Source: Amoebophrya sp. A120 (lineage: Eukaryota > Protista > Dinoflagellata). Taken from it: a DNA stretch of 64,000 bases. Below, in pieces: positions 18,011 through 54,555 of the stretch. The number at the start of each line of letters is the position of its first letter. The first letter of the stretch is position 1. The position numbers were made by a program, and so were the translations under genes. The stretch lies in NCBI GenBank assembly GCA_905178155.1, contig CAJINV010000009.1:3280768-3344767 (forward strand). Reading direction: 5' to 3'. The notes below the pieces were generated by a model that saw nothing but the letters and a program-made list of their open reading frames with translations, did not search any database and had not been told where the DNA came from.

Positions 18011-21000
18011 ATGTCAGCCGCCACGACCAAGGAGCCCAATGGGGCCTTGCAACTGCTTGTTGCCACTGCTTCCGCCTACGGGGTGTACAAAATCTACGCC
18101 TACTACGTCAATAAACAGAGCCATAGAGCAGGAAAAACGCTTTACCTCGACCCCGATGAAACTTCTTACCGGTTTGCTGGAAGGAGGAAGCACAGCAAAG
18201 AGAAGGACCAGCAGCAGGGTAGAAGTAGCCCCACGACGAGGACGAGAGGAATGAATAAGAAATCTTCCAGGTCGAGGGAGAAACAATCTGGGTCTTTTTC
18301 CTCTGATACAAACCCCACTACTACAAGCAGTCCAGAGGACGCAACAACCCCTGCTGCTGACGAAGATCTAACCACCACGAACCAGGAAATCGACGACAAC
18401 GGGGACCCGATCAACGAAAACCAAGTGGATTTGATATAGCAAGAAAAAAGTGTTACAGTTACACATTGTGTTGCAAGACCGGCAACACAGACAACCTTTC
18501 TCATGCAGGAAATGCTTGGGAGCCTCGTTTCCTTCCTGTTTTCCCTTATGATCTTCGCATTACAAGTCTTCTCTGCCACACAGAGAAAATTTGTGATGCA
18601 GAAACTCCAACAAATGTGTAACTGTAACACTTTTTTCTCACGATATTTGATCGGCCAGTTTTATTGGGACAAGCTTTCTGAGAAAGCCCGGCTCTTACTC
18701 GAACAGCAGATGTTGATCCAGGAAAGTTTCATCCCCGGGTTTATCCAGGATGCGAAGGATAGGCTACTATCAAATGTAAAAATGTCTGGGTCTGGAGGAG
18801 TCTAAACTTGTCATGCAGGTTTTCCATGACCCACTAGGTCTGGAATGCGGGACCTAGCATGGGAGACTTTGTGAGGTCTTTGTCATGCCCATCCAGCATG
18901 AGAAACTCCCTGTCCCTCCCAACTTGGTCGGCAGTGGACAGCTTTTGGCACTCATGCAACACAGATTTTTGCATGATTCGGATTTAGCATGACAAGTTGG
19001 CACTCTTCCAGACCCAGACATTTTTGCATTTGATAGCTGCGGGTCCAAGACTACCAGAACGCGAAAAAGGCCGTGTTGGAGAAGAAAAAGTTGGAGAAGA
19101 TGCTGAAAAAATTGGAGTTCCGATATCATTTAGTCTTAACCTGTTTGACCGACTTGGATATCGCGTATTGCAAGCGAAAACTCGCTTTGGACGTGTCCAA
19201 GTCGACCTTGCTCCGGTTGGAACTGGACGAACTCGTGGAGTCGAAAATCGCGGATTGCAGGAGGAAATACTTCGGTGGAAACAATAGAGTCGGAAGCGGG
19301 TTTCTTGTTGGAGGGATGGCTGGATCTTCCGGCTTTTCCAGTCCGAGTTCCAGTAAAGCGAGTACTAGAAATAATTATCAGCTCGCTGCTACGGCTTCCT
19401 CTCTCTACCCCTCTCTGGAGGAACCGCGAAAGCACAATGGGAATCATGTGTTTCAGCAGCAAAGCCCACAGTTTCCGCTTCGTAGTTCCCCGGAGGGCGA
19501 AAATTTCCATTCTGGGCGCTTTCAACAACAGCAACAGCAGCAGCATCACCAGCAGTGGAGTAGCAACTCAACGCGCAATAACATGAGTTTAGTGCTCTCT
19601 GCCGATGACATTCCGAACGAATTTGATGATTTTTTTGTGGATGAAGATGGGTCGTTTTTGCTGGAGCAACCCCGCGCGAAACCCCCGACTCCGGTGAACA
19701 TTGCGTACTATCCGGAAGGAGCAGGAGGTCCTCGTACTTCTAGAGGAGGGCCACTGCGTGGTTCTTTTTTCCGGAGGACAAGAGAAACAACTCCAGCATC
19801 CTTCACTCCAGGAATAAATAACATAAGTGCAGCTGGAAGGCCTTCACCAGGTGCGGGGACGATGTTGACGTCGTCTGTTCATCATGCTGGAACATCAGAC
19901 ACGAAATCTTCGAAGCCAGATGTTTTATTTCATCAACCTCTCGTTGATTTCGACCTTTGCCTTTCCGAATCCGACTCCACTGCTTTGGAAACCACGGAAA
20001 TCTCCACCTCGCTTTACCCGGAACTGGAGCCGCCGAGGTTGTTTTCCTCAAACGGTTTTCTGTTCGGACTGACAGCAACTCGTAGTTCTACTTCATCGGC
20101 GACCACTTGGAACAGATCAAATTCCAGGCCCACCCCAGCACCGGTGAAAAAGGTTCTCTTCGCGGCCCCCGGAGTGACGTATCGGGAAGTGGTTCGGCGG
20201 CCGCGAGAGGCAGAGGACGGGGTAGAGGGGGCCGGAGAAGTAGAAGAGGAGAATAGAAATCCTCCGCTTCCTTTAGGGAAAAAGGCCACAGTGGTGTCGA
20301 AAGCGAAAAGTGTTTTGAAGAAGTCGAGCTCTATCATATCCCACGAAAAAACAGTTTCACTTTGGTGATTTTGCACAATCTGCATCACAAGTTCCTTACT
20401 CATGACACAGAAAATTTGCCATGCGCGCTTCCCGATGGAAAACACGCTTGAAAATGCAATGTGTTGCAGGTGTAGCAAGACAAATATTTCTGTGGTCCAT
20501 TTTCTGCATCACAAGTTCGCAGTGAAGCAGTTTTTTCTTGCGATATATCACGTCGCTGTCCGAAGGGCCTGAATCCTCCGGACGGAGTCAGTCGCCTTTT
20601 GTCGGAAGGAATAGTTGTGGAAGCAGTGGGAGGTGGGGGCAGCAGCGGGGGCGTTGTGCGTCATCTAGTACTTCTTCCCGGGTAGAAGATTGCTCGCCGG
20701 CCGCGATGTTGAACAGCCGCCGAAGCGGGTCCTCTTCGGCGGTAGAAAGAACTACACCGTCTAGAAGTGCACGAGGACGACGAGGAGCGAGTGTGGACGG
20801 GAAAACTGCACCTAATTCCGCCCCATCTTCACCTGCGCAAGAAGACCACGGCCGCGGGAGGAGATCTTCTGTAACTGCGATGAGAGAGCGATTTACTAGC
20901 GGTCGCAGAGTGTCATCTGCTATCCGTTCATCTCTACCAAAGAACAATGCCCCCGTCACTCCTCCTCTGTCTACTTCCCAGAGGTCGAGTTCCACTAGGA

Positions 21001-21029
21001 CTAGTAAAGATGGTGTTTGGAAGAGTTAA
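18011..21029 (+). CDS. Hypothetical protein with N-terminal hydrophobic anchor and coiled coil; exons 18011-18434, 18651-18767, 19041-20336, 20551-21029
   Basis: Four ORF pieces join in frame (VDL|IGQF, DRL|RVQD, SSI|TSLS) after removing three introners. Confidence 0.8.
18435..18645. mobile_element. Introner family H, DR tttga
   Basis: TIR tatagcaagaaaaaagtgttacagttacaca / tgtgtaactgtaacacttttttctcacgata. Confidence 0.9.
18768..19035. mobile_element. Introner family A, DR gctac/gctgc
   Basis: TIR tatcaaatgtaaaaatgtctgggtctgga / tccagacccagacatttttgcatttgata. Confidence 0.92.
20337..20545. mobile_element. Introner family H (divergent), DR tatca
   Basis: TIR tatcccacgaaaaaacagtttcact / agtgaagcagttttttcttgcgata; 209 bp, with an interior similar to the 42313 element. 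Confidence 0.88.
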
Positions 21030-22044
21030 GTAGTTTGTTAGCATTTGGAAAGTAGCTGTTGCAGTTCAGTTTCTGCGGGACAAAGAAGGCTTTACCTGTA
21101 CAGATCCTACCCCCAACATCAAAAATTGCCTACCCCTGTTTCTCAGAATATTTTGCTTCCCAAAAGATTATTATTTTGGTCCCCGTGATGACAAGAATGT
21201 GAATGAATTTTCCTCATACATCTCAAGCTCAAGGGAGTTCTGCCCTTGACAAGGAACGCAAGACATTACAGCATGCGTGTTTTGATGTTTGACGCTGTGC
21301 GCGCAGCTTTAACTTTTTCCAGTGAAATCACCGGAATAAACCAGATTGATAAACTAAATGTAGATTGTGAATGTTCTGGATGCTTGCAAATGTTCACCTC
21401 AGGTCCTCACAAAGCGAATAGTATCTGTACATCCAAAATTCATCACATAGTAGTTCTGGTTCTTTCCCTGCCTCCTATCAGGTACGGTACGTCCCAATGC
21501 GGACGCGCGCGTGGTAGATGATCTAGAATGACGCGCAAATTCATTTCAGGTGTCAATCTCAATTTGTTTCGTTCTTTGGCGCGCAAGTAGTTCGAAATGG
21601 ACATGGAGTGGACACGGTAGAGCGTATCAACAGAAGATGTTGTTCTACCGAAAGATCCTCTTTTGTGAAAAAGTTTCTTTTGAAGATAACCAAACCGCCG
21701 CGTGGTCGCGTTCCTTTTTTTCTTTCGATCTGCCATGTACAACTTCTCGCAGGGCAAATACCTGTACTTGAATGAGTATAGCAAGCGAACATTGAAGATC
21801 TAGCGGTCTTCAGATTATTATAGCCACACTCAACGCGCGGCAAGAATTTGTTGTGTTTACTATGTGGTCTACCTAAACTTAGAAATTTCAATTTCCTCGT
21901 TATTTTTCCAATAGAACAACTCTTCTAGTAGAGCGATATACCATTTCATCTCTTCCCGCGGCCGAGAACAACAACGAACTCGTCCATCTTTTTTCTCAGA
22001 TTTCTCCTCCCCACTCCGAACAATTATGAATCCCGTTTCCACGG

Positions 22045-22264
22045 TATGACAGTGCACAACTCCCCCTCCCCCTCATTTGTCATGCAAAAACCCAAGTCCA
22101 GTTGCTACCTTGTGGCACCGCGTGCATGACAAATTCCGGGAATCCGAACCGTACTACACTCGGCGCATGAACTTGTCATGCACAGGGTCCACCTGTAGTG
22201 GAGTTTGTAATGCTGTTGATACCATACAAATTATGAGGGGGAGTGGGGGTTGTGCACTGTCATA
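22045..22264. mobile_element. Introner family D, DR cacgg (probably in the 5' UTR)
   Basis: TIR tatgacagtgcacaactccccctccccctcat / atgagggggagtgggggttgtgcactgtcata. Confidence 0.9.
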
Positions 22265-22278
22265 CACGGCCCCCCTTG

Positions 22279-25200
22279 ATGACGATCTCCGAGGAAAGTT
22301 GGCAGCAGCATTGGCATATCAAGTGCAAAAGTATCGTCCTAGTATGAATTGCATTACAAATTGCCTTAGCATTACAAATTAATTTTGTAATGCGGATTTG
22401 CCTTGAGAAACAAAAAGATTTGTAAGGCATAAATGCAATTGTACGAGTGCGATACTTTTGCTGTGGATATGGCAAAACACGTTTTCTAATGCGCAACTGC
22501 TGGCACAACAAGGGCTTACGAACACGACGACGACGACGAACAACAGCAGTACGAACCAGAACCTGACCCACCAGCAGTTTAACCAATATAACACCCAAGA
22601 CCAACAAAACCTCGCAGCGGTACAGCAGTTCCAAAACTATTACGACCAAGCGGCGCAGCAGCAGTACAACCAGCTGGCACAACAGCAGTACTTGTATAAC
22701 CAACTCGCTTGGTACAATACCAATACCAGCAATACGAATACAAATCCTGCCAATACAACGAATAGTACCATGGGCTACTACGACCGCAGTTCCCGTAATG
22801 CCGACATAGGGGATATGGGAGTGTTAGGATCGAAATCGACAAAATCGAAAAACTTGTAATGCACAAAATCGATGCCAGTTAGACCCACAGTTTGTAGTCG
22901 GCGCATGACAAACTTACCACGTCCTGGAAGCGAATCTGTCATGCGGTTTAGGGCAAAATAGCTCCCCTCCGTCATGCGAGCCACCAGCGCAATATGTGAC
23001 ACTTAGCAGGACTACAATCTGCCTCCTTTGCGTCCTCTGCAATAGAGGCACTTTTGCTGTCGCATTTTCTGCATGACAGATTATTTCGACCTTGTCGATT
23101 TCGATCCTGACGCTTCCATAGGAGACAGCCGGCGGTGCATGGGTTTGTTCCTCTCGCTATCCCATGTAAAAACGTCCCCACCCCATAGTCAAGATGGGGA
23201 ATCGACTAGACAAGTCCACGAGTTTTGGCTGTTTTGCATGACAAATTTGGAGTCGCCTTGTAGTGCTGTTTGAGGTCGTTCAGCAGCATCACAGATCTAG
23301 CACATCGCGCTGATTGGCGCATTACAAACTCCAAAACGCGAATAACAAATGCTTCTCATGGGGCTCCGCATGACAAACATTTTGAGCATGCAGATTTGCA
23401 TGACAACTCTGGGGTGGGGACGTTTTTACACAGGATACTCGCGGGGGCGTCCCGGGGAGAAAGATGTGTACACGGGGAAATCGCAGGGCATGAACGGGAG
23501 CTGGGATGACGTTGGGATCTCCCGGCTCGTGGGCGAGTGGCGGAAGGAATTCAAGAAAGTGACGGATAAGTACAGCCACAAGCCCGCGCACCAAAGACCC
23601 ACGTTTCTGATCACCGATTTTCTTTTCGAACAAAACAAAATTGGGGACGAAGGGGCCAAGACGATCTTCGAGTTCCTGTTGGAGTATAAAGTGAAATGCA
23701 ACGTTATCAAGCTGTACAAAAACGACATCGGGGACACCGGGGCGTACTACATCGCGAAATATTTACGGGGCATGGAGGACTACGCGGTCCGCGAGTTGCA
23801 CTTGTCGGACAACTACATGGGGGCGAAGGGAATGGAGGACCTTTTTCAGGCGGTGGTCGGAAACAAAATGTATCCGAAAGAGGAGAGGCGAGGACCGTCG
23901 GTGTCGCTCTGTCCACTGTGGCTGCGCATCGAGAATAACTGTATTCGCATATAAGCATTTTTTTTTGTCATGCGTGCCGCCATGTCCATGTGTTTACATT
24001 TGTTGTTTTGAATTTGATTCGAAGCCTTACTTTGAGACGACCGCATGTTGACCAGAGACAACTGCATCGTCGATTTTTGATTCGTCCAATGATCACTGAA
24101 ATCACAGGCATCACCAACTTTATGGAGAATTTCGCGAAGATGGTACAGGAGGCCACCGACATCCGGACCCGCTTCATCCAGCCCGGCTACTGCAGCGAAA
24201 CGGGAGCGGTGAAACTCTACAAGGACAAGGCCGGGAAGGATGACGACAACTGGAAGGGGTACGTGATCCGGGGTCAGACCGGCCCCGCGTTCGCCCCCTA
24301 CACGTGCGCGGAGATCAACGGCAACTTCCCCGCCCTGTATTGCAATGAGAAATGCTCCCACCCCACACTTGGCACCAGAATTTGTATTGCAAACCTTTCC
24401 AATAGAAACATTTTCCGTCTTGCATATCTCAGCATCACAAATTTTCCATTCTGAATAGCTCGAATTTATTGTGTTGCGAAGGGGCCCAACAGCAGCGGGA
24501 TCTGTTATGCACAAAGCACCTTGCGCATCTAGATTCTGCATCAGAAAGGCTCGCAATCCTTTCACGCAACACAAAAAGGTTTCATTTGGAAACTTTGCAT
24601 GACAAACTTTTGCAAATACGGGGGTGGAGGCATTCTTCATTGTAATACCCTGCACGTCATCTTTGGGCAGAAGCAGCACCTGCATAAGGTCCAGTACACC
24701 CCCAGGCACGCGAAAATGCCCCGGCCGGTAGACGCGTTGTATCAAAATGAAAAATCCCCCCTCCCCATATCAAAGGGGGGATTTGTGTAGCATGATTTGC
24801 GACCACAAATCATATTGCCATGCTAGAAGGCAAAAGGTGCGGACTGTAGAGCTGGCTGGCGTGGGAAGGCCTTGCAACCTCAGCATGACAGGAGGCAGCT
24901 GGCATAGGGAAACAGCATGACAAATTTCCTGCAATTCAGGCAGCAACTGCTTCTCTTGGCCTTCTAGCAATACAAGTCGATTTGTGTACACAAATCCCGC
25001 ATGACAGATTTCCAATTCGATATGGGGTGGGGGGATTTTTCCTTACGATACGTTGCTGGATTTGTTTCCCGCCGGCGTGGCTTCCCCTAACTTCAAACCC
25101 ACGGTTCCATATGAAATGCAAATATGTCTGGGTCTGGAAGAATCCAAACTTGTCATGCAGAATTTCCATGCCCCGTGAGGTCTGGAATGCAGGACCTAGC

Positions 25201-26256
25201 ATGACAGAATCTGCGAGGTCTCTATCGTGCCTCTTCTGCATGAGAAACTTCCTCTCCTGGTGGTCAGAAAAGGGCATCTTTTGTTGCTCACGCAAGATGA
25301 CAGATTTTTGTGTGAGGCGCAGGATGCATCACAGGCTCCATCCTTCCAGACATCCAGGGATATTTGCAATGCATATCCCATCCTCGGTGACAAATCCGGC
25401 CAGTCTGACCCAGAACCAGCTGACCAATGGCGGTGGGAAATCCGGACCGCCGCAGGGCGCGGCTGTTCTGGGGGGGAAAAACGTGCAAAATTTGCGCCAA
25501 TTGAACAAAAACAACCTCCCGAACCCCGCAGCTTTGATGTCAACCAACGGTAATAAGCCCGTTGCTGGTAACTCCGCAGCTCCTGCCCCGTTACTCCCCC
25601 TCCGGGTGCCTCCAGCGAAAAACTCCTCCGCAGCGGCGTCAGGTGGCGGGGGCAAGAACAGTGGAAACAACAGCAATGTGAAAGGTAATGGGGCAAATCA
25701 ACAGCAGAGAGAACGGTCGCCCCGCCGTGGAGGTCAAAGTTCTAAGGACCACCAGCAGCAACAAGCGGCTGTCCCGAAACCGCCACCAACGCTGGAGCAA
25801 ATTATCGAAAATGGGGGTACGCCGGACCTGCTCGGTGGCGTGAATTCGGAAGAGGAATTCAACTTTGACAGCTTCAACGGCGGCTTCAACCCTTTTGCGG
25901 CGGAAATGAACGACGATGGAACGGGGAATCAGGATGGCATGTTGGATGACAACGGCGACAATTTTGGCGAGATGAATGCCGGTGACGATAACTACGACGA
26001 AACTACTGGGGACAATTTGCAGACCAGCGCCGATTCGGACAGCTTTTTCGTGAACGACATTGACCGGGAGTTCGGGCCGCAGAACGAACTGATCGAGCGG
26101 CACAACGGATACATTGCGACCATGGGCCTGGAAGAGCTTCCGAACGATTGGATCTACGCGAAGGGGATGGGTAACAAATCGAAAATCTACTACTTCAACA
26201 TGTCAACCCGGCACGCGACCACCAACCGGGGGGAAGTGTTTTTGGCCGGGGAGTGA
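22279..26256 (+). CDS. Q/N-rich, RNI-like leucine-rich-repeat protein with C-terminal WW-like domain; exons 22279-22316, 22475-22813, 23126-23157, 23443-23940, 24108-24337, 24653-24739, 25056-25109, 25381-26256
   Basis: LRR motifs NKIGDEGAKTI, NDIGDTGAYYI and NYMGAKGMEDL; ELPNDW...IYYFN. The frame is continuous after removing six introners and one GT-AG intron (23941-24107). Confidence 0.8.
22317..22469. mobile_element. Introner family C, DR tggca
   Basis: TIR tatcaagtgcaaaagtatcg / cgatacttttgctgtggata. Confidence 0.88.
22814..23120. mobile_element. Introner family E, DR gggga/ggaga
   Basis: TIR tatgggagtgttaggatcgaaatcgacaa / ttgtcgatttcgatcctgacgcttccata; removal gives DIG|DSRR. Confidence 0.88.
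23158..23437. mobile_element. Introner family F, DR ctcgc
   Basis: TIR tatcccatgtaaaaacgtccccacccca / tggggtggggacgtttttacacaggata. Confidence 0.92.
24338..24647. mobile_element. Introner family G, DR ccctg
   Basis: TIR tattgcaatgagaaatgctcccacccc / ggggtggaggcattcttcattgtaata. Confidence 0.88.
24740..25050. mobile_element. Introner family B, DR cgttg
   Basis: TIR tatcaaaatgaaaaatcccccctccccatatc / gatatggggtggggggatttttccttacgata. Confidence 0.92.
25110..25375. mobile_element. Introner family A, DR ttcca/tccca
   Basis: tatgaaatgcaaatatgtctgggtctggaag ... cttccagacatccagggatatttgcaatgcata; removal gives PTVP|SSVTNP. Confidence 0.88.
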
Positions 26257-27549
26257 AGAATGAAAGAGGAGGATGATAAAGTCTCGGTATTTCATTCAAA
26301 ATACTTTATTTCCTTGTTTGGTTCTTTCTGGCAATAAAAATAGATGCTTGTTAATAATATCTTTCCACGTGGCGTTGGTGCGGTAGAAGGGCCACCGAGG
26401 GTCATCAAGATCCACTCTGAGTGCAGTTTACAAGGGATGAATTTGGTCCGACAGAAATCGAAATGTATGTTGACTGCACGACGGCATAGAAAACATTGCT
26501 TTGCAGGTACAACTACTCACCAGCGAAGATGAAACTACACCTGTAACGAAACGTCGACGGAACTTCAAAAAACGCGAAAAGTGCCGAGCTCCGCTGAAGA
26601 ATTATCTCCAGTCAATTGGGAGAAGCGGGTGCGAGTTGCTTCCAAACAACAGATTTAACGTACACGGTCTAAAAATAATTTTTGCGGTATTTTATTATTC
26701 CGTGTGTCGACCACAGTGCAGCAAAAGACTTTTAGCAAAAGAGAAGGAACAGTACACAAAACTTTTTTGAGTAGTATTTCTTGAAAACACAATGTGCTGT
26801 CCTAATTGATGTCCAGCGACTTCTACTGGTCGCACCATAACAAGGTGATTGATGTCCCCTGGCAGTCGGGAAACTGCAGGAATCCGATAGGATGAATTCA
26901 ATCCTATCTGCCGAAGATGCGAACAAACTCATTTTTTTGACCGATAACTTTTTCTTTTTGCGCCGAGGAAAAATGAATAACGGTAAACAAGGCCGTGCGT
27001 ATTTTCTTTCGCCAGATGCAGATGCTGGCTAGGCTTGGAACTGAGTCTGTTCAAGCGATAATTCCACTGTCACGAGCAAAGATCAACTGCTTTACGAACA
27101 TGTTCACATTAATATAGTGTCTGTGCTGCTGCTGCTTTTTCTCAAGGAAGACACCGTAATTGTGTTGATCCTGCGTTTAGCAACAGAAAGCGTATGGTAT
27201 CTCGGAGGCTCGCGCTCTGAACTTCAGTGGAGATGAAGAAGCGCGTGATGCGTTATTCTGATTCTTGTTCAAGTACTGACATGCACCAGTAGCGTGTGAT
27301 CGGAAGACAAGGCTTAATTATGGACACATGTTTTTATAAAGGAACATGAACCAACCAATTCGAGACATGATTTCGTCGATAGAAGAGTCACATTATTTCG
27401 CGGAAAAAACGAAAAAGTACGTAAATTTTGGTAGTACAACACCAGTATCAGTATCAACACCCGTCTTCTAATTATTGATTTGTCGCATTTTTTATCGCCT
27501 TTTTTTTCAATTCGTTTTCGTCCAATACGAACATCACACCAACACCAGA

Positions 27550-30101: not shown

Positions 30102-30459
30102 AGGAAAGGCGCACTTCTTACCTGCTTCAAGCGGTCATTCATGATTAGCCAAGGGGCTGTGTCGTGTGCAGTCCTACTGAGAAGAGAATTTTTCAGACAC
30201 CTATTTGATTTTCCACAATTTTGAGACGTTGCTGCTGTTAGGTTTCGGACAGAAGGTTCCGAAGTTCTGTTGTGTTGCAGCAAACACCTATTCCGATTTC
30301 AAAGACACGAAGAAAAGAAGGATATATCTCCGAACTCATGTCGATGTCCACGACCAATCGGATTTGGAATTGCAGACGCTGCCGCTGCAGTTGTTCTGCG
30401 TGTTCGTCTGTTTTTCAAACCTTATAATAGGATGAAGCAAGGAGCGCACATTCTCAGGG

Positions 30460-42800: not shown

Positions 42801-45800
42801 TTAGCATGACAAGTTGCTTTGTTCCAGCCCCAGACACTTTTGCATTTGATACGATCGGAACTCCTACGCGTATGGGTACGGAAAGAGCGGCGAGACGGGT
42901 GGGTTGCTGTGGTTCCTGCCGACGCGGCTGTTGGGGATGGGAGATTGGCTTGGTATGATAGAAGAAGCTTTTGCATTTTTTTTTCTTTTCATCTGATTCG
43001 GGGTCTGTTGCTGCTGCTGGTATTGTTCTTTTCTTGTGCCTGGAAGATGATGAAAACACATTCTGTATACTTGAACAGAAGCAATACAAAAAACCAGGCC
43101 TCGGCGCCCTGTACCGCGCTTTGCGGATGTCGACGAGTAGTGCGTCGCGCACGGGACGCGGGCGCATGAATTTGGAAGAGCAGTTTTCGCAGGCGCGGAA
43201 GGAAGATTTGGAAAAAATCAAGCACTGGCTGCGCACCGACCCCCCGGAGCGCGTGATGCTTCTCACCGGGCCGCGGGGCGATGGCAAGCTCGAGGTGATT
43301 CAGGAAATTTTCCGCGACAACTATATCACGAAGAGTAGTGGTACTGGTACGACGGTGGGGCAAGAACATCAAGTGGGAAGTAGAACTACAATCGGGGCAA
43401 CATTATCTGCACCACGCGAGGTGGACCATCAGCCAGTGACACACAGCTCCACGACGGCGTTGCAACCGGTCGTCGAGTATGAATTGCAAAACGTCTGGGT
43501 CGGGAAGGTTGGAACTTGTGATGCTAACTCTGGACTCTAAAAAAATCTGTATTGCATGACCAGCAAGAGGACTCTAGTTTGTGCTACGCGGGGATGGCAT
43601 TTGTCATGCGGATTAGGTATCAGGAAGGGTTCTGAAAATCTGTGATGGTAGGGCATACATCACAAACAATCCTGGGTCATGCAGAACATGCATGACAAGT
43701 CTCAGAATCTTCCAGACCCAGACATTTTTGCATTTGATATCGAGCTGGATTTTTCCCCGTTACTAGCCCGGAACAAGGATGAAAGGTTCCTCCTAAACGC
43801 GCTGTGTCGCATGTTCAACTACTACCCGGCGATGCTGATTTGGGACCAGTCCGCGGCCCTGCTCGACACCGTCGTGCCCGGCGCGAGTCGGATCGCCGGC
43901 GGGTCGGGCGGGGGAATGAACGAACAGGTGAACACGCAACTCTCGCGGATCTTGTCTTTCACGACCGTCGCACTGGCACAGCATAAGGAGGAACGGCGGA
44001 AACGGGAGGAGAAGGGCTTGACGGGTTTGAGTGGAGGTGGTACAACAGCTAGAACATCTGCTGGTGATATTGATCAAGCAAAATCTTCGTCGAACAGCGG
44101 TGATGCCGTTCCCGCCTCCCTGACGCAGAACACGAAGGAAAAGTACCCGCTCTTCGTGATCGAGGGCTTCACGCAGGAGAATTTGGACTCCATACCGAAT
44201 CTCCTGGAACTTCTCATCAAGTGGGCCGCGCTCGTTTCCGAGCGAAAATTAGCCAAAGTCGTTTTTCTCATCGACGGGTCCTGGGGCCACTCGTTTTTCC
44301 AGAAGGTCTTGAAGCACCGCCCGGACTTGCTGGAAGAGAAAGTCTGGGGCGACGTGCCGATGGAAATGGTCCGGGAGTGGCTCGGGGAGAGGTTTTTGGT
44401 CGATCTAGCGGAGTTGGAAGGACTGAAAACAGCAAATAATGCTGACGAAGTTGATCATAAAACTAGCGACGCACTGGTGTCCTGGGCGACGAAGAGAAGT
44501 ACTACTACAACTAGCGCTGCTACCGGTGATGTTGCAGCCGGCTCAACACCAACATCTTCGGAAGTTCCAACGACCACTAGTACGACAGCCCAGGAGCTTA
44601 TACTCGGTGAGAAAAATCGACTGAAGACGCAAGAAGTTTTCCCGCCAGCCGTGTCTACGGGTGAGGCAGCGACTGACTATGGAGGAATAAACCTTCTGGA
44701 AGTTGTAGCCGGTGGATCGTCAACAACATCCTCTTCCTCTAAAGTACAAACACTTGATGTGGCTGGAGAAAAATCAGGACAACAAGTCCTTTCCCCGCCG
44801 CCGTCCCTTCTCCACGTGTGTTCCCCGCAGGAGAAGGTGTTTATGATCAACCGCATCTTGAAGACCCTCGGGGGCCGCTTGTCAGACTTGGAGATTCTCC
44901 AGTCGAAAATTGAGAACGACAACATGATATGAAATGCAAATATGTCCGGGTCTGGACGGTTAGAACTTGTCATGCCAGATCTTGATCACTGAAAAATCTG
45001 TGTTGCATGAACTCCAAATAAAGCTGCCCACTTCTTGGTAGGCAGAAGGCGGATTTCTCATGCGGCATAGGCATGAGGAAGGTCTTGCAAAACCTGTCAT
45101 GCTTCTGTGTGCATTCCAGACCATGCACGTGGTCCGCGAGATGCATGACAAACCTTGCACTCTTCCAGAGGACCCAGACATATTTGCATTTGATACATGA
45201 CGCCGTCGGAAGCTCTGGCGGAAATGATCGAGACCACGACCACAACGGTCCGCTCTCTCCTGGTCCGCGACGAGAAAGAGGCGCTGTCCGTATCCTGAGC
45301 AAAAACGTCTCCACCCCAGAGTTGTCATGCAGATTTGCAATGACAGGAACATTTGCAATGCGCATCTACATGAGAAGCATTTCCAATCGTGTTTTGGAAT
45401 TTGTAATGCTGTAAACAGGATGAGGAGATGGGTTTGTGATGCGACTGCCCTTGCTAACCTACACTACACTACAACGACGAACTTGTCATGCATGGCTTCC
45501 AAAACTCTTGGATTTCTCTTGCAGAGTTCGCAACTTGACTATGGGGTAGGGACGTTTTTACTCAGGATAGTCCGCGAACCAGCTTTGGTCCCGGAACCAG
45601 TTGTGGAAAGCGATTGAGATCTTGGCGCTCGGGGAGGCGAAAGCGGAAAGAGCAACTGGTAGTGCTGTGAAAGGTGGACAAGCCGCGGCGCACAAAAATA
45701 CCTCCTACGTCACCTACGATGCGTTTCTCGATTACGTGCTACGTGGGGACGAGCGCATCATGCGGCACATGCTCGCGTCGCAATTGATAACCACGAAAAT

Positions 45801-47667
45801 GGTCGAAGTCCTTGGGGAAGAAGAAGTAGACCACTCTGGAAGTGCAGCAGCAGCAGTAGGTCCACTGCGAGTTGATCATGAAGCGGGTTCCTTCTACTTC
45901 CGTCGCTTCGGGCAGCGAAAGATGCAGCAAATCGTGCTGCCCGGGTCGCCTTTATTCGGCGAAGTTTACAATCGGTTGTATTTGGGGGAGGAGAGTACAA
46001 TTTCAAGTTCGAGTTCAAGCGAGGGGACCAAAAAAGACCCTTCCACCAGAACGTCCAGCATCTCCACTTCCTGCCGCAACATTTTTGGCCTCTCCGCTGT
46101 GAAGGAAGACATCGGGAAAGTGGAAAAGGACCTGCAACACTACGAAGCCGAATTATCTTGATTAAAAACGTCCCCACACCAGAGTCAAGATGGGAAATTT
46201 GCTAGACAAATCAGCCAGCTTTGGTGGTTTCGCATGACAACTTTGTCCTCGTAGTGTAGTCCTTTTTTGCTAGTTCAGCAGCATCACAGATATAGCATTA
46301 TCGCGCTGATTCTAGCATCACAAATTTCAAAACACGAATAGAGAATGCCTCTCATAGGGCTCCGCATGAGAAACTTTTATTTTTGGCATGCAGATTTGCA
46401 TTACAACTCTGGGGCGGGGACGTTTTTACAAACAATAGGAATTGCAGAAGGTTTACACGGCGGAAAAAGATTTGCGGAAACTCGAGCGCGACGCGCACGC
46501 CGTGGTACACCACCACATGCTGTTGGCGGAACGCGCAGGTGGCGGGACTTCAACATCGAGTTTTGGGTCTTTTTTGAATTCTTTCGTGACCAATTTGGTC
46601 TTCTTTCCGGTGAACGTGATTCTGTACCCCTTCAACAGGAGTGTCACCTTCGCAAACATTGTGGACGACATATGGGGTTCTCAAAGAACGTTACATTCTC
46701 AAGTGTTGCGTGATTTGTCATGCAAAATGACCATGAACCACCAGACGACCAAGCTGCTTCGCATGACAAATTCTCGGGCGGCTAAACAGCACTAGTAGAG
46801 TTATCCGTGCCAACAAATCTGTAATGCAAGCCGCGCAACGCTCTCCCCCTCACCTGTGGTGCTATTCTTGCATTACAAATTCATGCAACAGTTGAGAATG
46901 TAACCTTTGGGAACGCCATACGACACGACCTTCGAGCGGCAGAAGGCGGTGATTGAGGAGAAGAGGGAGGAGATGGAGTTCAAGGTCTTCGAGTCGCTAT
47001 CAAATGTAAAAATGTCTGGGTCTGGAAGAATTCACGTTTGTCATGCTTGTCTGGCATGACTTTTAAATCTGTCATGCACGTTACCCAAGAGCTCCGTTGT
47101 CCTGTGATGCAGAAGTGCAGTTTGTCATGCGGAATAGGCAACACCTAGGAGCTCCGAAACTTGTCATGCTGAGCCAGCATTTGTAGCCTCATCATGAAAC
47201 GCCACCCAGCATCACAAGTTTCCAGACCCAGACATTTTTGCATTTGATAGTCGCGAAAGCTGTATTTGCTCGGGCGAATCCACAAGGAGCAGGAGAAGCT
47301 GAAATATCCTGTGTAAAAACGTCCCCACCCCATAGCCAAGTTGGTAAGTCTGCAACACAAATCTCCAAGTTTTGGGAGTTTTGCGTGACAAGTTTCCATC
47401 TGTAGCGTAGTGCAGGTTAGGAAGGGCAGCCGCAGGATGAAAGCCAGCTTGTCATCCTGTTTACAGCATTACAAAGTCGAAAACACGATTGGAATTGTCT
47501 CTCATGGGGAAGCGCATCACAAATGCCCCCGTCATTGCGCATTTGCATGACAACTCTGGGGTGGGGGCGTTTTTTCTGAGGATATGAAAATTCTGATCGC
47601 GCGCAAGGACGAATACTCGGCCGAGAACAAAAAACGGAAACGGGAAATCGTGCCGTTTGCGGTGTGA
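39838..47667 (+). CDS. YME2: Mitochondrial escape protein YME2/RNA12-like (RRM + TM + P-loop-like); exons 39838-41679, 41877-42312, 42527-42586, 42857-42952, 43098-43477, 43745-44927, 45201-45290, 45575-46153, 46443-46670, 46926-46997, 47255-47304, 47590-47667
   Basis: Arg/Ser-rich presequence; WFSNIYP, REGGVFVDF, GKPF..YPS, SAVAARNCLH, FDPLRLFF, TGPRGDGK, GGRLSDLE and W..NQLW. Continuous frame after removing nine introners and two GT-AG introns. Confidence 0.82.
42313..42521. mobile_element. Introner family H, DR gacgt
   Basis: TIR tatccaggaaaaaaactgtgtaagtgtaa / ttacacttacacattttttttcttgcata; removal gives TT|FLFDPLR. Confidence 0.92.
42587..42851. mobile_element. Introner family A, DR cgatc
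   Basis: Family A TIRs; frame restored on removal. Confidence 0.92.
43478..43739. mobile_element. Introner family A, DR tcgag
   Basis: Family A TIRs; VVE|LDFSPL. Confidence 0.9.
44928..45195. mobile_element. Introner family A, DR catga
   Basis: Family A TIRs; DNM|TPSEAL. Confidence 0.9.
45291..45569. mobile_element. Introner family F (reverse orientation), DR gtccg
   Basis: The interior matches the reverse complement of 47305-47584; LS|ANQLW. Confidence 0.92.
46154..46437. mobile_element. Introner family F, DR cgaat/ggaat
   Basis: tatcttgattaaaaacgtccccac ... ggggacgtttttacaaacaata; EAE|LQKV. Confidence 0.9.
46671..46920. mobile_element. Introner family K, DR cgaca
   Basis: TIR tatggggttctcaaagaacgttacattctcaa / ttgagaatgtaacctttgggaacgccata. 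Confidence 0.9.
46998..47249. mobile_element. Introner family A, DR gtcgc
   Basis: Near-perfect family A TIRs. Confidence 0.92.
47305..47584. mobile_element. Introner family F, DR tgaaa
   Basis: tatcctgtgtaaaaacgtccccacccc ... ggggtgggggcgttttttctgaggata. Confidence 0.92.
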
Positions 47668-48589
47668 TGTTGAACGACGGAAGGCGATACATAGAAGAGA
47701 TGCCGGGGGGTCGTGTGGAGATGCACTTAATCTTAAGTAATGATGTGCACACGCTGCATATTATTTAAGTACATGTACAGCAGAAGGGAAAGAACGTTTG
47801 AATTCATCGACGGTCGTGCTGTAGTACAGTGGTTCGAGGACACTTGTAGTACAGCCGTCCACGACCCGATTTGTGATCATGTTGCTGATAAACGCGAACG
47901 AATATGAGGAACTCTCGAGTGGTCCCAAGGACAAGACGGTCGAAAGACCGGATCAATACTGCGGAGGACGGAGAGCTGGGCCGGCAAAGTGATGATGGCC
48001 CAGACGAGGACTTGGTCGTCGTTGTTCTTTTCCGCTGTATTTTTGGTGCGTCTGTTGTAGTCAGCACCTATCGCTGCCATTGTTTCTACTTACATCTTCC
48101 TGCGATCTCGCTTTCCTGATGTAGTACTCGCAAAAGTGGCAGGACGTGTCCCGCACTCTCTGTTGTTTTTCGATTTCGCGGTAGAGTTTGTCTTTGTACC
48201 GATTTTAGTATCAACTTCGGCGCTTCTATGCGATCGGTTTCGGTACAGAGTGTCATGATACGATTCGTTCGGTGAATTTTGCGAGCCCTTCGCTTTTCGT
48301 AGCGAAATCCATTTATAGCTAAGCAGTTTCATCATCAGCCTAAAGCAGTGGAGGGGAGGCGCACTGTAGAGCTTTTTGTTTGATCCACGATCGTAAGTTC
48401 GCTCGCTCGTTCGCTTCGTTGTCCGCTTCTTGACTACGAATGAATAGATTAAGATTTGATTACGAACTGCGCCTGATTCCGAGACCTATAATTTATCGAG
48501 GGAACTTTAAAAGCGAGGAGAGGTAAATTCTTTGTAAACGTAAAAAAGCAAGTAGAGCCAGAAAAATAAAGTCTAATTCCGAATAAATC

Positions 48590-51500
48590 ATGCCCGATAT
48601 TGTTCCCAGCGCGTCCTCCTCCTCGAAGGCTGTGAAGCCGAAGGAGCAGTTCATAGGGACGACATCATCCGCAAGTGCTGGCTCGGCCTCGAAGCAGAAG
48701 AAAGGGCTGAAACCCGCTGCCAGCAAGTCCGTTCAATCACGAGATGACAAGAAGGCTCGACGTCACCAGCAGGAGGATGACAAAGGGAAGAAGAGCACGA
48801 AAAATTATAGACCCCCGCCGGCGCCGCGGCTGGACGAAACAAAATCAAAAGTAAAGGTCCAGCCTTCTTCGCAACCAAACAAGAACTCTCCCGCCCCTCG
48901 ACTGCCGACGACCAAGCCGCTCCTCCCACCTTGTCTCGAGGAGTTGCGCACCACAAAAAACCACTTGCAACCGGTGGACGCCGATCGAATCGACGATCCA
49001 AATCTGAAGCTCGACGCGGCCGGGGTGCCGGTGGTGCTGAAAAGCTTGAGGGAGACGAGGAGCAACGACAAAAATCACAATCAGGGTAGGTCATCTAATA
49101 TTTGCGGTACTAGTTCTGCGGATAATTCATCTACTGCGAACAAATTTTTATCCGCTAAGCAACGGCGGCACCTCACCGTCTTGAGCAAAAATCTAGGGCC
49201 GTTGGACCACGATCGAAGGCGGCTGATCAAGCAGTGGACCGCGGTTCTGTTCCCGCTGGTAGAGGTGGACGAAGGGAACATAAAGAAGCAGAATGATTCG
49301 CATGCACAACAAGCCACGTCCACCTTGTTAACAACTGCGTCGTCCGACGTGAAGAATGCAGCGGGTGGGGGACAGCGACAGCCGTCTGATGCTCCTCTAC
49401 TTCCGGATGAGTGTAGTTCTTCCACGAGAGGAAAAGAAGTTGGTGGCAAGAAACCAGAGGTAGGAACGACGTCTTCATCTAGCGGAATAAATGGAAAAGT
49501 AAATGAAGTTCTGTTACAAGAGCCAGTAGATTGTGCATCGCTTGAAACCAAGAAGAACAAGGACGACCTGCCTAGCACAATAAAAAATCGCGCGAAACAC
49601 GAACTAATATCGCGGTGCCTGCAGTTGCACCCCGACGACTTTGGCGTGGAGGAAATCGAAGCGCTCGAAGAGTTACGGAAAGCCATGCTCAAGAAAAGAA
49701 AAGCCCGCGCGCAGGTGTTGCAGAGCTTATTGCACGACGGGCGGGGGTTGGGGATGGGGTTGCACTTGCAGAACGAGAACCAGAAACAGGATGAAAAACC
49801 TCCGCAGAAGGTGATGAACGACACTGGGGCATCAAATAAAACTACTACATCGAGTCGCACACCAGAAGAGTCCTGTGCAACGCCCGCAAACCTGTTTTCC
49901 CAAACGCAGCATTTCTTTGCGGACGGATCGCAGACGCAGACCGGGGACGAGATCATGGAAGGCCCACGACCTGGTGTGGAAAAAATGACTGCTACTTCGG
50001 GTCAAAAAACAGTGGCGGGAGATGAAAAGCAAGGACAGGTGGGTGAAGTAGATGGCTGCGGGAACAACATTACGCCCGGATTTTTTGCGTTTCCGTTTTC
50101 ATCTTCAACACCTTCACAAACACCCGCGTTTAATAATACTCTTACGCCAGGTTACAACTACGGCACGAGCCGCTTGCTGCCGTTTCAAAACAAGAGGCGG
50201 GAGGAGATATTGGCGGAGGAAGAGAGAAATAAACGGTTGAAGAGGAAATACCTGATATCGAAAGGAAAAATCCCCCCTCCCCATATCAAAACGGAACTTC
50301 TGATGCTGGAGTTGTGTACACAAATCAGCTTTGTATTGCAGCAAGGCATAATTGCGGCTAGACCCCCAGTCTGCGTTTGGGTGTAGTTGTTCAGCATTGC
50401 AAACGGCTGCCCTTTAGGCGCAACAGCGTGGCAAATCGTTTCCTTAACGGGGCAAAGGCTTGTGCCCTTGTTTTCTTGCAAGACAAATGTGATTTGTGGC
50501 CACAAATCAGCAACGCAAATCTTCGGAAACATACAGCGTCAATATGGGCAGGGGGAGTTTTTCCGTTCAATACGTGAAGCAGCTGAAAGTGATTTACGAA
50601 AACGAAATCCTGAAAAAAACGTCAGAGCTCCGGAAGGCGCAGGTGCTTTTCAGCAAGCAGGAGGGAAAGTTGCGGGAAATCCAAGCAGAGAAATTGGAGT
50701 TGGAGATGGGGACGAACTACTGCAGTGGAGCGACCTGCGGAGCTAATGTGTTAGAAAAGCAACTGTTCAAGAGCCATCCGACCGATTTCACCCACCTCTC
50801 CGGCGCCCGACAAGTTGCCGACTACCTTGAGTTTCTTGTTTCCGAGCGCCGGTTCTGGCTGGGAATTTCGGAAAACTTGGAAAAAGTGGAGAAGATGTTG
50901 AAGGAAGAGACAAGAAGAAGAAGTTGTGGGACGGCCACTTCTACGCTGGATAAACAGAGTTCATCCCTGGTGGAGAAGAAATCCGTGGATTCAGCAGCAA
51001 ACGAAGACAGACTCGTGGCGCGAAACGATAGCGAAACGAGGAAAAATCAGTCGTCGCTTGCAGTACCAAATGAAGAAGCAAGTGACGACGAAGTAGAGAA
51101 CGCTGACAACTACAATAGGACCACGAGCACGGCGACTTCCAGCAGACAGCTTGTGGCTGCAGAGAGGTTTTTTCACGAGGAGATCCAGGAAAAGATTCTT
51201 TCTCGTCGGCGCGAGCAACAAGCCAGTCTTTTTCCTAATAGTAAAAGCAACAAACGGAAGCGGAAAACAAACTTGTCCCTCGTGAAATCCGGCGAAGAAC
51301 CTGGAGGTGCAAGCTCTTCGAAGAAAAGGAAGATAAAAGAAGACCAGAACCACGACTCTAAGAACTCAGGCGGACGGGCGGAAACGACGGATCACTGTGA
51401 AGATATGGCAATGGGAAATACTTTTTTCAGAAAACTTTTTTTTTTCGCCGCATATGATCTCACGGCACTCCATAGGCATACAAGCGGGCACGCGCAGAAT

Positions 51501-54500
51501 AGATCTGTCTAAGCGAGTAGACGGCTCTTGGTACTTAGCTAGCTACCTGTGACGCAAAAGAGATGCGGCCTCCGGAGTAGCCGCGGCCATGGATTCGGTC
51601 CTTGGCGCTCTGGCCTCAAGGTACTTGACACACAATGCCCCCACCGCGGCCTTTGTGTATGGGGCGGAGGCTCAGGGTAAGTCAGCGAAATTCTGAATGG
51701 CTCGCTTAGACGCGGCTGTCTGAAACGCGCGTGGCCTCTAGGCGTCGCTCGCCCCAGCTTTCGAAGTTCCCCAATAGAAAAATACAGATCAGGCTTAGAG
51801 CTTCGGCGTCTTTGGGTTTGTTCCGGGCCAGGCTGTACAGCTCCCCGTCTTGGCCGAATTCGCGCTGTCATTGTTCCAGACGCATTCTTGCAAAAGCCGC
51901 AAACTTGCGGAAACACAAAGCGCGGCCGGGCCCCCCCTTGAGGGGGGGGTTTGGGGGACCCCCCTTCGTGGAGATATCAATGGGGAGTAGCTCTCGGCAA
52001 AGGCCCCGAAAGGGGGGGGTTTGGGGGACCCCTTGGGGGGACCCCCGAGGACTTCGACTTGCAGCCGAGGAGGGAACTCTGCTAGCCTCCTGGCAAAACA
52101 GGCTGGGGCGAAGAACCGCACCCCGAGACCCAGGCCCGGAGGAGCGCCGCGGCCCTGGCATCACTGTCGTCAGCGCTGCCGCGTATGGATTTGAATTATT
52201 TTGAAGCTGCGCGCGGGCGCCTGTTTCTCCTGCTGGGGCGTGGGCCTGCTGTTGGCCCCAACCCGCAGCACGTCCGGCCTTGGGCTGCCCGCGTATTGCT
52301 TTCATTAAAGCGAAAGCACTGCAGGGGCTGGCCTTCCGACATCTACGCCGGCCACGCCGGACCCAAAGCCATGACGCAGTGAGCCCCGAGTGCGGTAATC
52401 TTCTTGCCGTCAGGCAAGCGAGCTCAGGATACCACTGCAGGCGCTGTTGCCACGCAGTCGATTTTTGCCGGCAAAAAGCCATCTACTTACCGCGACGGGT
52501 AAGTTATATGTGGCAAAAAAAAAGAGTTTTCAGCAAAAAGTATTTCCCATTGCCATAGAAGATATAGGCGGACGGGCGGAAACGACGGATCACTGTGAAG
52601 ATTATCCTCCTGTAGTAGAAGAGCCAGGAGAAGGAGACCTCCAAGCGGATAGTACTGGTCCAGTGAAAAATCAAGGAGATGATCATGAGGATCCCAATTG
52701 CAGCAAAGGTAAAAACACGTCGCCAGCAGGAGTTTCTTCCGCCCAAGCCGACCTCCTCGCCCAGCCGACCCCCGCGCCGGTGTTTTTTTCAGAAGAAGCC
52801 GCCGCTTGGCTGCAGAAGAATTTCGCCGTGGACGATAGTTTGTGGGTGTACGCGAGAACGTACATTTTGCTTGAGTCGGAACATAGAAATAGCAAGGAGG
52901 ACAGCGATTTGACAACATCACCGAAGGACTTTCTTGCCGAAAAAGCGTTTCTCTACCTGAAGTGCGCGGTTTTTAAGCAGCTGGTCTTACTGCAGAGAGA
53001 GATTGAAACGAGTTACGATCAGGTTTTCGCGATTGCGACTGGAACATGTGAGGAAAAAGGGGAGAAGCATGTTGAACTGGTAGCTCAACATGGGGACAGG
53101 ACGAGCAAGATCAGTACATGTACATCAACTGCAGTTCCGGGTGGAACTTCTACAACTGTCCCGGACCACCCCAAGAACACGAACACGAGCAGTGGCCGCG
53201 GGCACTCAATCTCGTTCACTCAGCTGGTCAACAAGAAGAAAATCAACATCATTTCCCAGCTGGAGACCTACAATGAACGAATCGCCCGGGCGCACACCGA
53301 GCTGCAATCCATAGAAGCGGAGATAGTCGAGAAAACCGCGGCCATCGGGGATTGCAAGGAGGAATTCGATATCCTGTGCAAAAGTATCGTATTTTTATTG
53401 CAATCATGCATTACAAATTTATTTTTTTCTTATGGTAAAGCCTACCGCATTGCAAATTCAATTTCTCATGCTGATGAAATTTGTAATGCATTTATACGAG
53501 TGCGATATTTTAATTTTTGCAATGCATATTCGAGGTCGCAGTTTGCGAGGTTTTCGGCGCGGATCAGATAGCCGCCGGCGCCGAACCCGGGAGCGCGTCC
53601 GCCGTTTCTGTGCGCAGCGCGGCCGCGGCGTCGGTGCTGTCGGCGGCGCAGGCAACGCTTTTTGTTCCAAACGGTTTTTACAGCGGTCGTGGTGGTCGTA
53701 TTGGAGGCGGTGGTGCAGCAGCGGGGCGGGGGTCTTCTGCACAGACCCCGGCACAAGTTGTGCAACATCCACACGTGGCCGCGCTGTGGACAAAAGCAGA
53801 CTCGACTCTGGAACAGGCTTGGGTGGCGGTTATGTCCCTATCAACTGCAAAAATGTCTGGGTCTGGAAGGTTGACACTTGTGATGCGCATTTCAGAGCAC
53901 AGAAAAATCTCTCATGCATAGGCAGCAAAAGTTGCCCATTTTCTGTCACCAAAGTCAGGGATTTGTCATGCGGATTCGGAACTACTGCCCAATCGTGACC
54001 ATGCCCGTAGGAACTACTTTAATACTGTCTCTACGACTTTTGACTTCATTCATAACCTTCAATTGTATTCCTACCTAACTTGTATTTTTTGTTTTTTCTC
54101 TGTACGATTGGCCAAAGCGCCACCGGGACAGCCTGCCCGTAGACCACCGATGTCATGCGGATTCGGCATTGCGAACGCTTCTCGAAACCTGTGATGCTAG
54201 AGCTTGCATGCCAGACCTTCTGTGTCATGCAAAAGCAGCATGAGTCTTCCAGACCCAGACACTTTTTCATTTGATAGTCCCTGTGCGAACGGAGTCCAGC
54301 TTGGCGGATGGCCTTCAAGGAGCAACAGAATATCGCAAGAAAGAAACTGTGTAAGTGTAAATCTGTGATGCAGAACACGCAGCAGAGTTACACCTGTCAT
54401 GCCAGACAGCCATGAAGTCCTCTTTTCATGTGTGTTTTCCCTTACCAACCATGCATGACAGGTTTTCTCTGTCATGTACGGCAAATTTGTGATGCTGTTT

Positions 54501-54555
54501 CCCAAAGAAAGTTACACTTACACACTTTTTTTCCTGGATACAGAAGGGAGAATGA
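48590..54555 (+). CDS. Large hypothetical coiled-coil protein; exons 48590-50255, 50578-51403, 52563-53369, 53534-53838, 54282-54330, 54546-54555
   Basis: ORF pieces join in frame after removing five TIR elements (KYL|KQLK, EF|EVAV, MS|LCER, QQ|KGE*). Confidence 0.75.
50256..50572. mobile_element. Introner family B, DR cctga/cgtga
   Basis: tatcgaaaggaaaaatcccccctccccatat ... atatgggcagggggagtttttccgttcaata. Confidence 0.9.
51404..52557. mobile_element. Long (1154 bp) non-autonomous TIR element, family L, DR gaaga
   Basis: ~50-bp TIR tatggcaatgggaaatacttttt... / ...aaaaagtatttcccattgccata; GC-rich interior with no recognisable transposase ORF. Confidence 0.88.
53370..53528. mobile_element. 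Introner family C, DR ttcga
   Basis: tatcctgtgcaaaagtatcg ... cgagtgcgatattttaatttttgcaatgcata; similar to the 22317 element. Confidence 0.88.
53839..54276. mobile_element. Introner family A with internal insertion, DR gtccc
   Basis: Family A TIRs; 438 bp versus 252-271 bp for the other copies. Confidence 0.9.
54331..54540. mobile_element. Introner family H (reverse orientation), DR cagaa
   Basis: Close reverse-complement copy of 42313-42521. Confidence 0.92.

Follow-up and report, generated by a model that had tools for sequence, protein, structure and literature searches.

The window described here is a 64,000-nucleotide stretch of the dinoflagellate Amoebophrya sp. A120 (contig CAJINV010000009.1), and all coordinates count from its first base. 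It contains genes interrupted by introners, elements that are removed from transcripts as non-canonical introns. We defined 29 introner elements from RNA joints, inverted repeats, and blast matches to confirmed copies; together they span 7,688 bp, or 12% of the window. In blastn with a 7-base word, the elements split into 10 window families (F1 to F10) with no alignment across families. One internal word, TTGTVATGC (V is A, C, or G), recurs in both directions and at preferred spacings across these otherwise dissimilar families, and this word, its conservation, and its likely reading are the subject of this report.

Removal of the elements from RNA was read from contigs of four intron-free runs, guessed to be RNA, that were compared with positions 17500–30500 and 42000–55000. 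These RNA-like contigs skip 18 stretches of 158–316 bp exactly, each stretch comprising an element together with one copy of a 5-bp direct repeat. The ends of skipped stretches are not GT-AG (e.g., AT..AT, CA..TA, and CT..TA) and each joint has 2–7 ambiguous bases. Three neighboring introns in the same contigs are GT..AG, which places the genes on the plus strand. One host gene has ten introns, nine of them introners, between 42.3 and 47.6 kb and matches Pfam RNA12 at 43652–44932 (E = 1.4e-13). Two raw RNA runs gave only seven and four reads on the window and were not used as evidence. In the RNA-like runs, summed contig depth over the introners at 18763–19035, 28350–28783, and 46774–47641 is 10–100 times that of flanking exons (e.g., 1,084 vs. 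9–14), with numerous contigs covering them at 95–99% identity, so those runs must be rich in copies of these subfamilies that are unspliced or intergenic.

In structure, the elements are like miniature inverted-repeat transposable elements (MITEs), being multicopy, bounded by terminal inverted repeats, and flanked by a target duplication whose length is constant. They start with TAT(C/G), end with (G/C)ATA, have family-specific inverted repeats of ∼25–50 nt, and are flanked by an exact 5-bp target duplication. An element finder blind to the motif, which required inverted arms matching at 16 or more of 20 positions and an exact 5-bp flanking repeat, recovered 16 elements in the window, 15 of which start with TAT and end with ATA. 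It recovered 74 more in the related loci described below. Arms match at 16–20 of 20 positions, and target duplications show no sequence consensus across elements. Positions 11–15 of element ends are A in 104–142 of 160 ends (positions 1–3 had served to select the ends). These features agree with the A120 introners as portrayed in the main-text passages of Farhat et al. (2021; PMC7789003), where introners have inverted repeats, short direct repeats, and a start of TAT followed by seven variable bases and AAA; the window elements are likewise non-canonical introns of ∼150–315 bp with terminal inverted repeats, direct repeats at their boundaries, and TAT, seven bases, and an A-run. Unlike the terminal repeats to which those passages confine their description, the window elements add an internal motif arranged on a lattice. 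Introners of strain A25 start with TTA instead of TAT.

The motif TTGTVATGC has 66 matches on the two strands of the window, against 2.09 expected (standard deviation 1.17, maximum 5) from 100 dinucleotide shuffles, none of which reached 66. Sixty-three of the 66 are inside the 29 elements, at 8.2 per kb versus 0.053 per kb outside, a concentration of ∼150-fold. When the elements themselves were shuffled 300 times, the mean was 0.56 matches and the maximum three. The exact motif occurs at least once in 28 of the 29 elements and is present in all 10 families. At every k from 6 to 9, the most widely shared word among families is part of it, and with its flanks the full motif is RAAYTTGTVATGC, of 13 bases. 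At base 5, 35 sites have C and 14 each have A or G; T is found just once within elements. A position weight matrix built from the sites and applied at a threshold of 10 bits identifies 130 sites inside elements and 24 outside, with 1–6 sites per window element and mostly 4–6.

A preliminary description of this DNA had proposed, by eye, that such a 9-mer recurs across introner families, and the counts bear it out more strongly than was claimed. Its example positions are all real within 1 base (18808, 24915, 22351, 22385, 22077, 22124, 22854, 22903, 23398, 24432, 24597, 18557, 18591, 46715, and 46870). It had also considered the motif rare in exons and in canonical introns. The first part holds, with no match in the 6,721 bp of exons set by RNA-like contigs, and the second stands on a narrow base of three GT-AG introns only (532 bp), in which there is one match, at 23965. 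The other two matches outside elements are at 13047 and 61517. The GT-AG intron with the exact motif at 23965 extends from 23941 to 24107 and may have begun as an introner, long ago, before it gained canonical splice sites.

Elements are listed here with their exact matches and matrix sites, in that order, and with the letters of the preliminary description where it had one. The first group of RNA-confirmed introners comprises F3 at 18429–18644 (H; 2 and 3; joint 18428>18645), F1 at 18763–19035 (A; 3 and 6; joint 18762>19036), in which the motif lies within 50-nt inverted-repeat arms, and F5 at 22040–22264 (D; four exact; target duplication CACGG; joint 22039>22265). They are followed by F6 at 22312–22469 (C; 3 and 4, spaced 16–18 bp apart; duplication TGGCA; joint 22311>22470) and F7 at 22812–23123 (E; 2 and 4; joint 22811>23124). 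The F2 introner at 23153–23437 (F; 4 and 5; joint 23152>23438) and the F4 introner at 24735–25050 (1 and 4; joint 24734>25051), which contains B of the preliminary description at 24914, are spliced with all sites antisense to the gene. Between them is F8 at 24333–24647 (G; 2 and 5; duplication CCCTG; joint 24332>24648), and F1 at 25107–25377 (1 and 6; joint 25106>25378) closes the group.

The second group of RNA-confirmed introners starts with F3 at 42308–42521 (2 and 4; joint 42307>42522) and continues with F1 copies at 42580–42849 (2 and 4; joint 42579>42850), 43473–43739 (3 and 5; joint 43472>43740), and 44922–45194 (2 and 5; joint 44921>45195). The F2 introner at 45286–45569 (4 and 6; joint 45285>45570) is in opposite orientation and spliced with all sites sense, and further F2 introners are at 46150–46438 (3 and 6; joint 46149>46439) and 47300–47584 (3 and 6; joint 47299>47585). 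Between these two are F9 at 46665–46919 (K; 3 and 4; joint 46664>46920), whose sites alternate in orientation ∼48 bp apart, and F1 at 46992–47248 (4 and 5; joint 46991>47249).

The remaining elements include F1 copies at 28668–28930 (2 and 6; duplication CGGGG), where one piece of an RNA-like contig stops at 28663, at 53837–54278 (2 and 5; duplication GTCCC), which has extra internal DNA, and at 62294–62555 (2 and 4; duplication GTGAA, read by eye). F3 elements are at 20336–20546 (2 and 4; duplication TATCA) and 54331–54540 (1 and 4), and an F6 element is at 53377–53531 (2 and 5). F4 is represented at 50256–50568 (0 and 5) and, with a diverged left part, at 61766–62040 (1 and 4). A diverged F2 copy is at 12409–12698 (1 and 3; duplication TCTTT), and a truncated F5-like copy, of which only the right end is recognizable, is at 29149–29424 (1 and 2), its left boundary inferred from contig arithmetic. 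A degenerate introner-like sequence, F10, is at 7933–8158 (1 and 1), with approximate boundaries assigned from sequence only.

Near-motif clusters also occur outside the defined elements, at 60319–60367 and 61513–61644, and may be eroded elements. One consists of AAACTTGCAATGCA twice, 27 bp apart, beside a weaker inverted site, and the second has three sites around 61513–61631. A different repeat cluster occupies 63000–63430, with many direct and inverted copies of a palindromic unit of ∼30 nt, TTGAAAAGATGCTCC..CAGCATCTTTTCAA; the introner motif has no copies in this cluster. Separately, four raw RNA reads with the same species label match the window partially (at 22200 and 22461), with a loose end that carries two motifs 18 bases apart. 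They hint at a related strain carrying the same word and are too few to count.

To cover copies elsewhere, metagenome contigs were scanned for a convergent exact motif pair, which yielded at least 110 loci. We used 38 of these, totaling 137,832 bp, with G+C of at least 0.44 and several exact motif matches each; locus L034 was dropped because it overlaps L033. Counts thus cover the window and the 38 related loci (64 kb + 138 kb = 202 kb). The 38 loci carry the families of the window at 75–96% identity to window elements and nothing else of the window, so they derive from further sites in the same genome or in a close relative of it. Approximately two-thirds of the at least 110 loci hold instead an unrelated near-perfect palindrome of 57–66 nt and were set aside (e.g., L003, L006, L007, L009–L014, and about 60 others; G+C 0.32–0.46). 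Both ends of this palindrome are the 11-base word used for the scan, and most such loci have just two motif copies, a few having three to five. They were recovered because the pattern matched, not through kinship with introners.

The motif replicates in elements that owe nothing to the scan. Fifty-one of the 74 distinct elements recovered by the motif-blind finder in the related loci lack the motif pair used for scanning, and the 23 that hold it were excluded from replication counts. Of the 51, 46 have at least one exact motif, with 93 matches in 12,358 bp. Across the related loci, the density is 9.24 matches per kb in element-like DNA versus 0.115 per kb in the rest. Pooling window and loci gives 13 families, all with the motif; pooled families 1 to 9 correspond to F1, F9, F3, F6, F2, F5, F7, F4, and F8, respectively.

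Families resemble each other through the motif sites and not otherwise. Profile hidden Markov models (HMMs) of the nine larger families, when unmasked, each detect 4–10 other families in alignments spanning several sites. Once sites scoring at least 8 bits are masked, each detects its own family only (E values of 1e-17 to 1e-70), save for a single marginal hit at E = 0.008. Word and spacing are the only similarity across families. The dissimilarity of families that the preliminary description had assumed is thereby upheld, in the HMMs as in blastn, and the end-to-end alignment that it would have taken to mean simple shared ancestry is not what is seen: families detect each other through motif sites only.

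Sites are arranged in arrays with characteristic positions and spacings. In all nine multi-member families, the outermost site has a median distance of 37–52 bp from its end, and families of 300 bp have centers without sites. Spacings between neighbors peak at 15–18, 31–34, and 46–50 bp, and 19–29 bp is nearly empty; the peaks persist when families are given equal weight and when the bare 6-base core is used. With one representative per family, 34 of 45 spacings of up to 66 bp deviate by no more than 2.5 bp from a multiple of 16.3 bp (null 0.36, p ∼7e-8, for a period chosen post hoc). Direct spacings of 31–33 bp occur in 10 of 13 families and convergent spacings of 48–50 bp in five, and pooled family 2 is a regular array of alternating orientation with sites every 46–49 bp. 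Spacers of equal length cannot be aligned between families, meaning that length is kept and sequence is not. Outermost sites point inward in pooled families 1, 2, 7, 8, and 9 and outward in family 4, with families 3, 5, and 6 showing a mixture. We also considered whether the termini are themselves motif copies and rejected this, as resemblance of terminal 10-mers to the motif is limited to pooled families 1, 4, and 12 (scores of at most 7.1 of 17).

The lattice could be a relic. If all families descended from one ancestor composed of ∼16-bp tandem units, the motif might be the slowest-decaying remnant of those units and have no function. A common origin is plausible because TAT...ATA termini, the A-run at positions 11–15, and the 5-bp duplication are common to all families. 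However, the spacers have diverged beyond profile detection, yet the 13-bp word and its spacing are kept within 1–3 bp; neutral decay would erase word and spacer alike and blur the spacing by indels, which counts against passive ancestry. The idea that gaps in the lattice are decayed motif copies is not supported, with just 3–6% of positions at ±16 bp scoring at least 4 bits, and this near absence of residual motif at unoccupied lattice points also speaks against ancestry alone, as does the restriction of base 5 to C, A, and G with a single T in elements. We consider purely passive inheritance very unlikely.

Conservation among copies points to constraint on the motif. With motif columns taken from a single copy and compared within the remaining copies (leave-one-out), identity in motif versus other internal columns was 0.79 versus 0.44 in subfamily F1b, 0.76 versus 0.68 in F2, and 0.79 versus 0.69 in subfamily F1a. 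Changes were then divided into shared and private in pooled families 1, 3, 4, and 5, none of which was used to find loci, with at most 27 copies per family. Differences shared by two or more copies have a frequency of 12.1% in motif columns versus 23.9% in other internal columns (odds ratio 0.44, p = 3e-46), and differences private to one copy one of 3.4% versus 4.2% (odds ratio 0.80, p = 0.049). Taken at face value, the word is retained in multiplying lineages and subsequently decays in resident copies at a near-neutral rate. The suggestion of the preliminary description that the word is a common cis-code is supported by its rank as top shared k-mer, by its conservation above that of spacers, and by spacing that is kept without spacer sequence.

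Whether such a code acts in DNA or in RNA can be judged in part from strand. The 18 RNA-confirmed introners, which lie in plus-strand genes, contain 40 sites in sense and 46 in antisense orientation and so show no bias for the transcript strand. Elements with sites on one strand only are all spliced, whether these are sense (45286–45569, six sense to zero) or antisense (23153–23437, zero to five; 24735–25050, zero to four), and two F2 copies of opposite orientation are removed in one transcript contig. Because sense-only and antisense-only elements are both spliced, a factor that reads one RNA strand is unlikely. The enrichment on the transcribed strand that characterizes splicing enhancers and sites of RNA-binding proteins is likewise absent (40 vs. 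46). We attempted to assign strand in the related loci from open-frame length and rejected the assignment as unreliable; it is ambiguous in 27 of 38 sequences, the window included, and the resulting count of 98:77 was not used.

A role in RNA could take two forms: a marking factor may bind the motif in pre-mRNA, or inverted copies may pair and stabilize the hairpin that joins splice points. The confinement of the motif to introns, with none in the 6,721 bp of exons, is compatible with either, and the main text of Farhat et al. (2021; PMC7789003), in the passages concerned, found no U1 snRNA and proposed hairpin-guided splicing. Moreover, in pooled families 1, 2, 7, 8, and 9, the outermost inward pair is the inner part of the long terminal inverted repeat and so continues the terminal stem, as the preliminary description supposed when it suggested that inverted pairs extend an RNA stem. 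This does not generalize. Window family F2 is one-directional and has no inverted pairs, and in minimum-energy folds the motif bases are paired at 0.72 versus 0.65 for other bases. In these predicted folds, only one-third of motif bases have a second motif copy as their partner, and several elements lack such pairing altogether. Base 5 is equal in 19 of 34 adjacent inverted pairs versus 38% expected (p = 0.05, not corrected for family), but in only 6 of 14 outermost symmetric pairs against the same expectation, so that there is no clear co-variation. A stem, furthermore, requires complementarity and not an identical word in 13 families; the motif is only weakly depleted of private changes in resident copies; and the truncated copy at 29149–29424, with two sites, still appears to be removed. 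A search of the whole window with Rfam 15 gave no match at the gathering score. On balance, we judge an RNA-level signal unlikely, and the array is most likely read on double-stranded DNA. Of the two functions raised in the preliminary description, a putative DNA-level subterminal site for a transposase fits the strand symmetry better, and a mark for RNA splicing is disfavored.

We propose that RAAYTTGTVATGC forms a putative array of double-stranded DNA binding sites for a trans-acting protein, a transposase or an accessory factor, that mobilizes all introner families with TAT ends and 5-bp duplications. By analogy with the subterminal repeats of Ac/Ds, we infer this binding-array function and would give it about an even chance of being correct. 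One sequence-specific DNA-binding protein would read the sites cooperatively, with direct neighbors at 31–33 bp, or about three helical turns, and would be part of the machinery that mobilizes all families. The motif would then be required for the element to propagate, not for individual resident copies to be removed from RNA, and the family-specific inverted repeats may supply the hairpin by which splice points meet in the RNA. An integrase-type enzyme would be in keeping with the 5-bp duplication, as in the Copia/Gypsy-like frames reported for an A120 introner family in the passages of Gozashti et al. (2025) that describe it (PMC12130899).

Among known systems, Ac/Ds is the nearest parallel. 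According to the relevant passages of Du et al. (2011; PMC3260210), Ds1, Ds2, and other classes have little in common with Ac apart from 11-bp ends and AAACGG subterminal repeats, which are bound cooperatively by the Ac transposase, giving specificity. The introners similarly repeat a short word several times, in either orientation, within ∼200 bp of their ends, and the word is common to otherwise unrelated non-autonomous families. The duplication is 8 bp in Ac/Ds versus 5 bp here, and the repeated word a hexamer there versus 13 bases here; no 16-bp lattice is described for Ac/Ds in those passages, and removal as an exact non-canonical intron is not a property of Ds elements. Binding is demonstrated for Ac and is what we propose for the window motif. 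The 5-bp duplication excludes the hAT superfamily, which makes 8 bp.

Other systems offer partial models, as far as the cited passages describe them. Proteins of Lemi1, a related autonomous element, bind subterminal repeats of the Arabidopsis MITE Emigrant cooperatively, besides its terminal repeats (Loot et al. 2006; PMC1636448); these are pogo-like, of a different superfamily, and concern a single MITE family, unlike the ∼13 unalignable families that share a word here. In Hermes, BED domains of an octameric transposase read subterminal repeats at one end (PMC10368747), which offers a model for the spacing in that several sites are engaged by several protomers of one oligomer. Hermes, however, belongs to hAT, and its protein and structure are known; nothing similar is known for the window introners. 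Ginger elements end in TGTNR and mostly make 4-bp duplications, with TDD-4 and TDD-5 of Ginger2 making 5 bp (Bao et al. 2010; PMC2836005), and “family 38” introners of A120 combine terminal repeats with Copia/Gypsy-like, integrase-like open reading frames (Gozashti et al. 2025; PMC12130899). The window elements resemble both in their terminal inverted repeats and share the 5-bp duplication with TDD-4 and TDD-5 only; unlike them, no integrase is seen in the window or related loci. The TAT(C/G) ends exclude Ginger as it is defined in the part of Bao et al. cited.

The protein that reads the array need not be a transposase. A host DNA-binding factor, such as a silencing or chromatin factor, or a transcription factor, would also account for strand symmetry, lattice spacing, and sequence-specific conservation, and the lack of any transposase found is in its favor. 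However, a site that aids repression should be lost in proliferating lineages, and lineage-shared changes are halved in the motif. The fixed subterminal position (median 37–52 bp in nine multi-member families) also points to a role related to the ends. A host factor as the reader is, in our estimation, improbable.

Several observations weigh against an array for a mobilizing protein. Pfam identifies no transposase or integrase in 18 long frames of the window or 24 long frames of the related loci; apart from the RNA12 match, most long window frames have no Pfam match, and an autonomous element with the same ends and encoding a transposase was not found in the 64 kb + 138 kb. The main-text passages of Farhat et al. 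(2021; PMC7789003) report no DNA-transposase domains in A120 and state that transposase-mediated mobilization is ruled out. A 1,154-bp TAT...ATA element at 51404–52557 is a counter-example: it has the same termini, 52-nt inverted repeats that are 90% complementary, and a 5-bp duplication (GAAGA), and it has zero motif sites, implying that the chemistry of the ends does not strictly require the motif. Its 204-aa frame has no Pfam match, and the element is single-copy in the 202 kb examined. Orientation is also not mirror-symmetric in every family, with pooled family 5 facing one direction only, and the outermost sites of pooled families 4, 12, and 13 face outward, unlike most transposon ends. 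The test of constraint has limits of its own. Private changes are similarly, and weakly, depleted in the terminal 30 bp (odds ratio 0.74), which are presumed to be necessary for splicing, and the contrast of private and shared changes therefore separates splicing from transposition only weakly. Samples are small, with at most 27 copies per family, and “private” changes are therefore contaminated by subfamily differences. Finally, an introner that spreads in genes is also selected for spliceability, and constraint on lineages by itself leaves room for a role in RNA.

The interior of the motif-less element at 51404–52557 is rich in G+C and contains a 22-bp repeat (51941–51962 and 52011–52032, 100% identical) in sequence rich in G and C runs.

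A bolder extension of the binding-array proposal would couple mobilization to intron removal. The same DNA-bound array would also flag the element co-transcriptionally for exact excision at the target duplication without splice signals, and the 1,954 A120 families counted in the main text of Farhat et al. (2021; PMC7789003) would be one superfamily served by one protein. We offer this as speculation and regard it as having only the slimmest prospect of being right.

Subterminal binding repeats are already known, and a single word on a fixed lattice across many introner families appears to be an unreported variant of them. The main-text passages of Farhat et al. (2021; PMC7789003) recognize no feature common to introners beyond the first bases of the inverted repeats, and note an introner-like repeat organization in 15% of canonical A120 introns. 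None of the motif words occurs in the supplementary text of that study, whose main-text passages, figures aside, give terminal repeats only. The terms “subterminal” and “binding motif” are absent from the text of Gozashti et al. (2025), as distinct from its figures and datasets. Among the matches listed for literature since 2021 on Amoebophrya, introners, and splicing, no such motif is present in titles or the starts of abstracts, and the best-ranked matches to the motif words in the wider literature look unrelated, being mostly primer or shRNA sequences.

The 13-base word gives a concrete handle on the spread and recognition of non-canonical introners in Amoebophrya, which number in the tens of thousands. 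The word can be used as a bait sequence, as a marker for an autonomous partner, as a basis for merging families into a superfamily, and as a means of flagging introner-derived introns in annotation.

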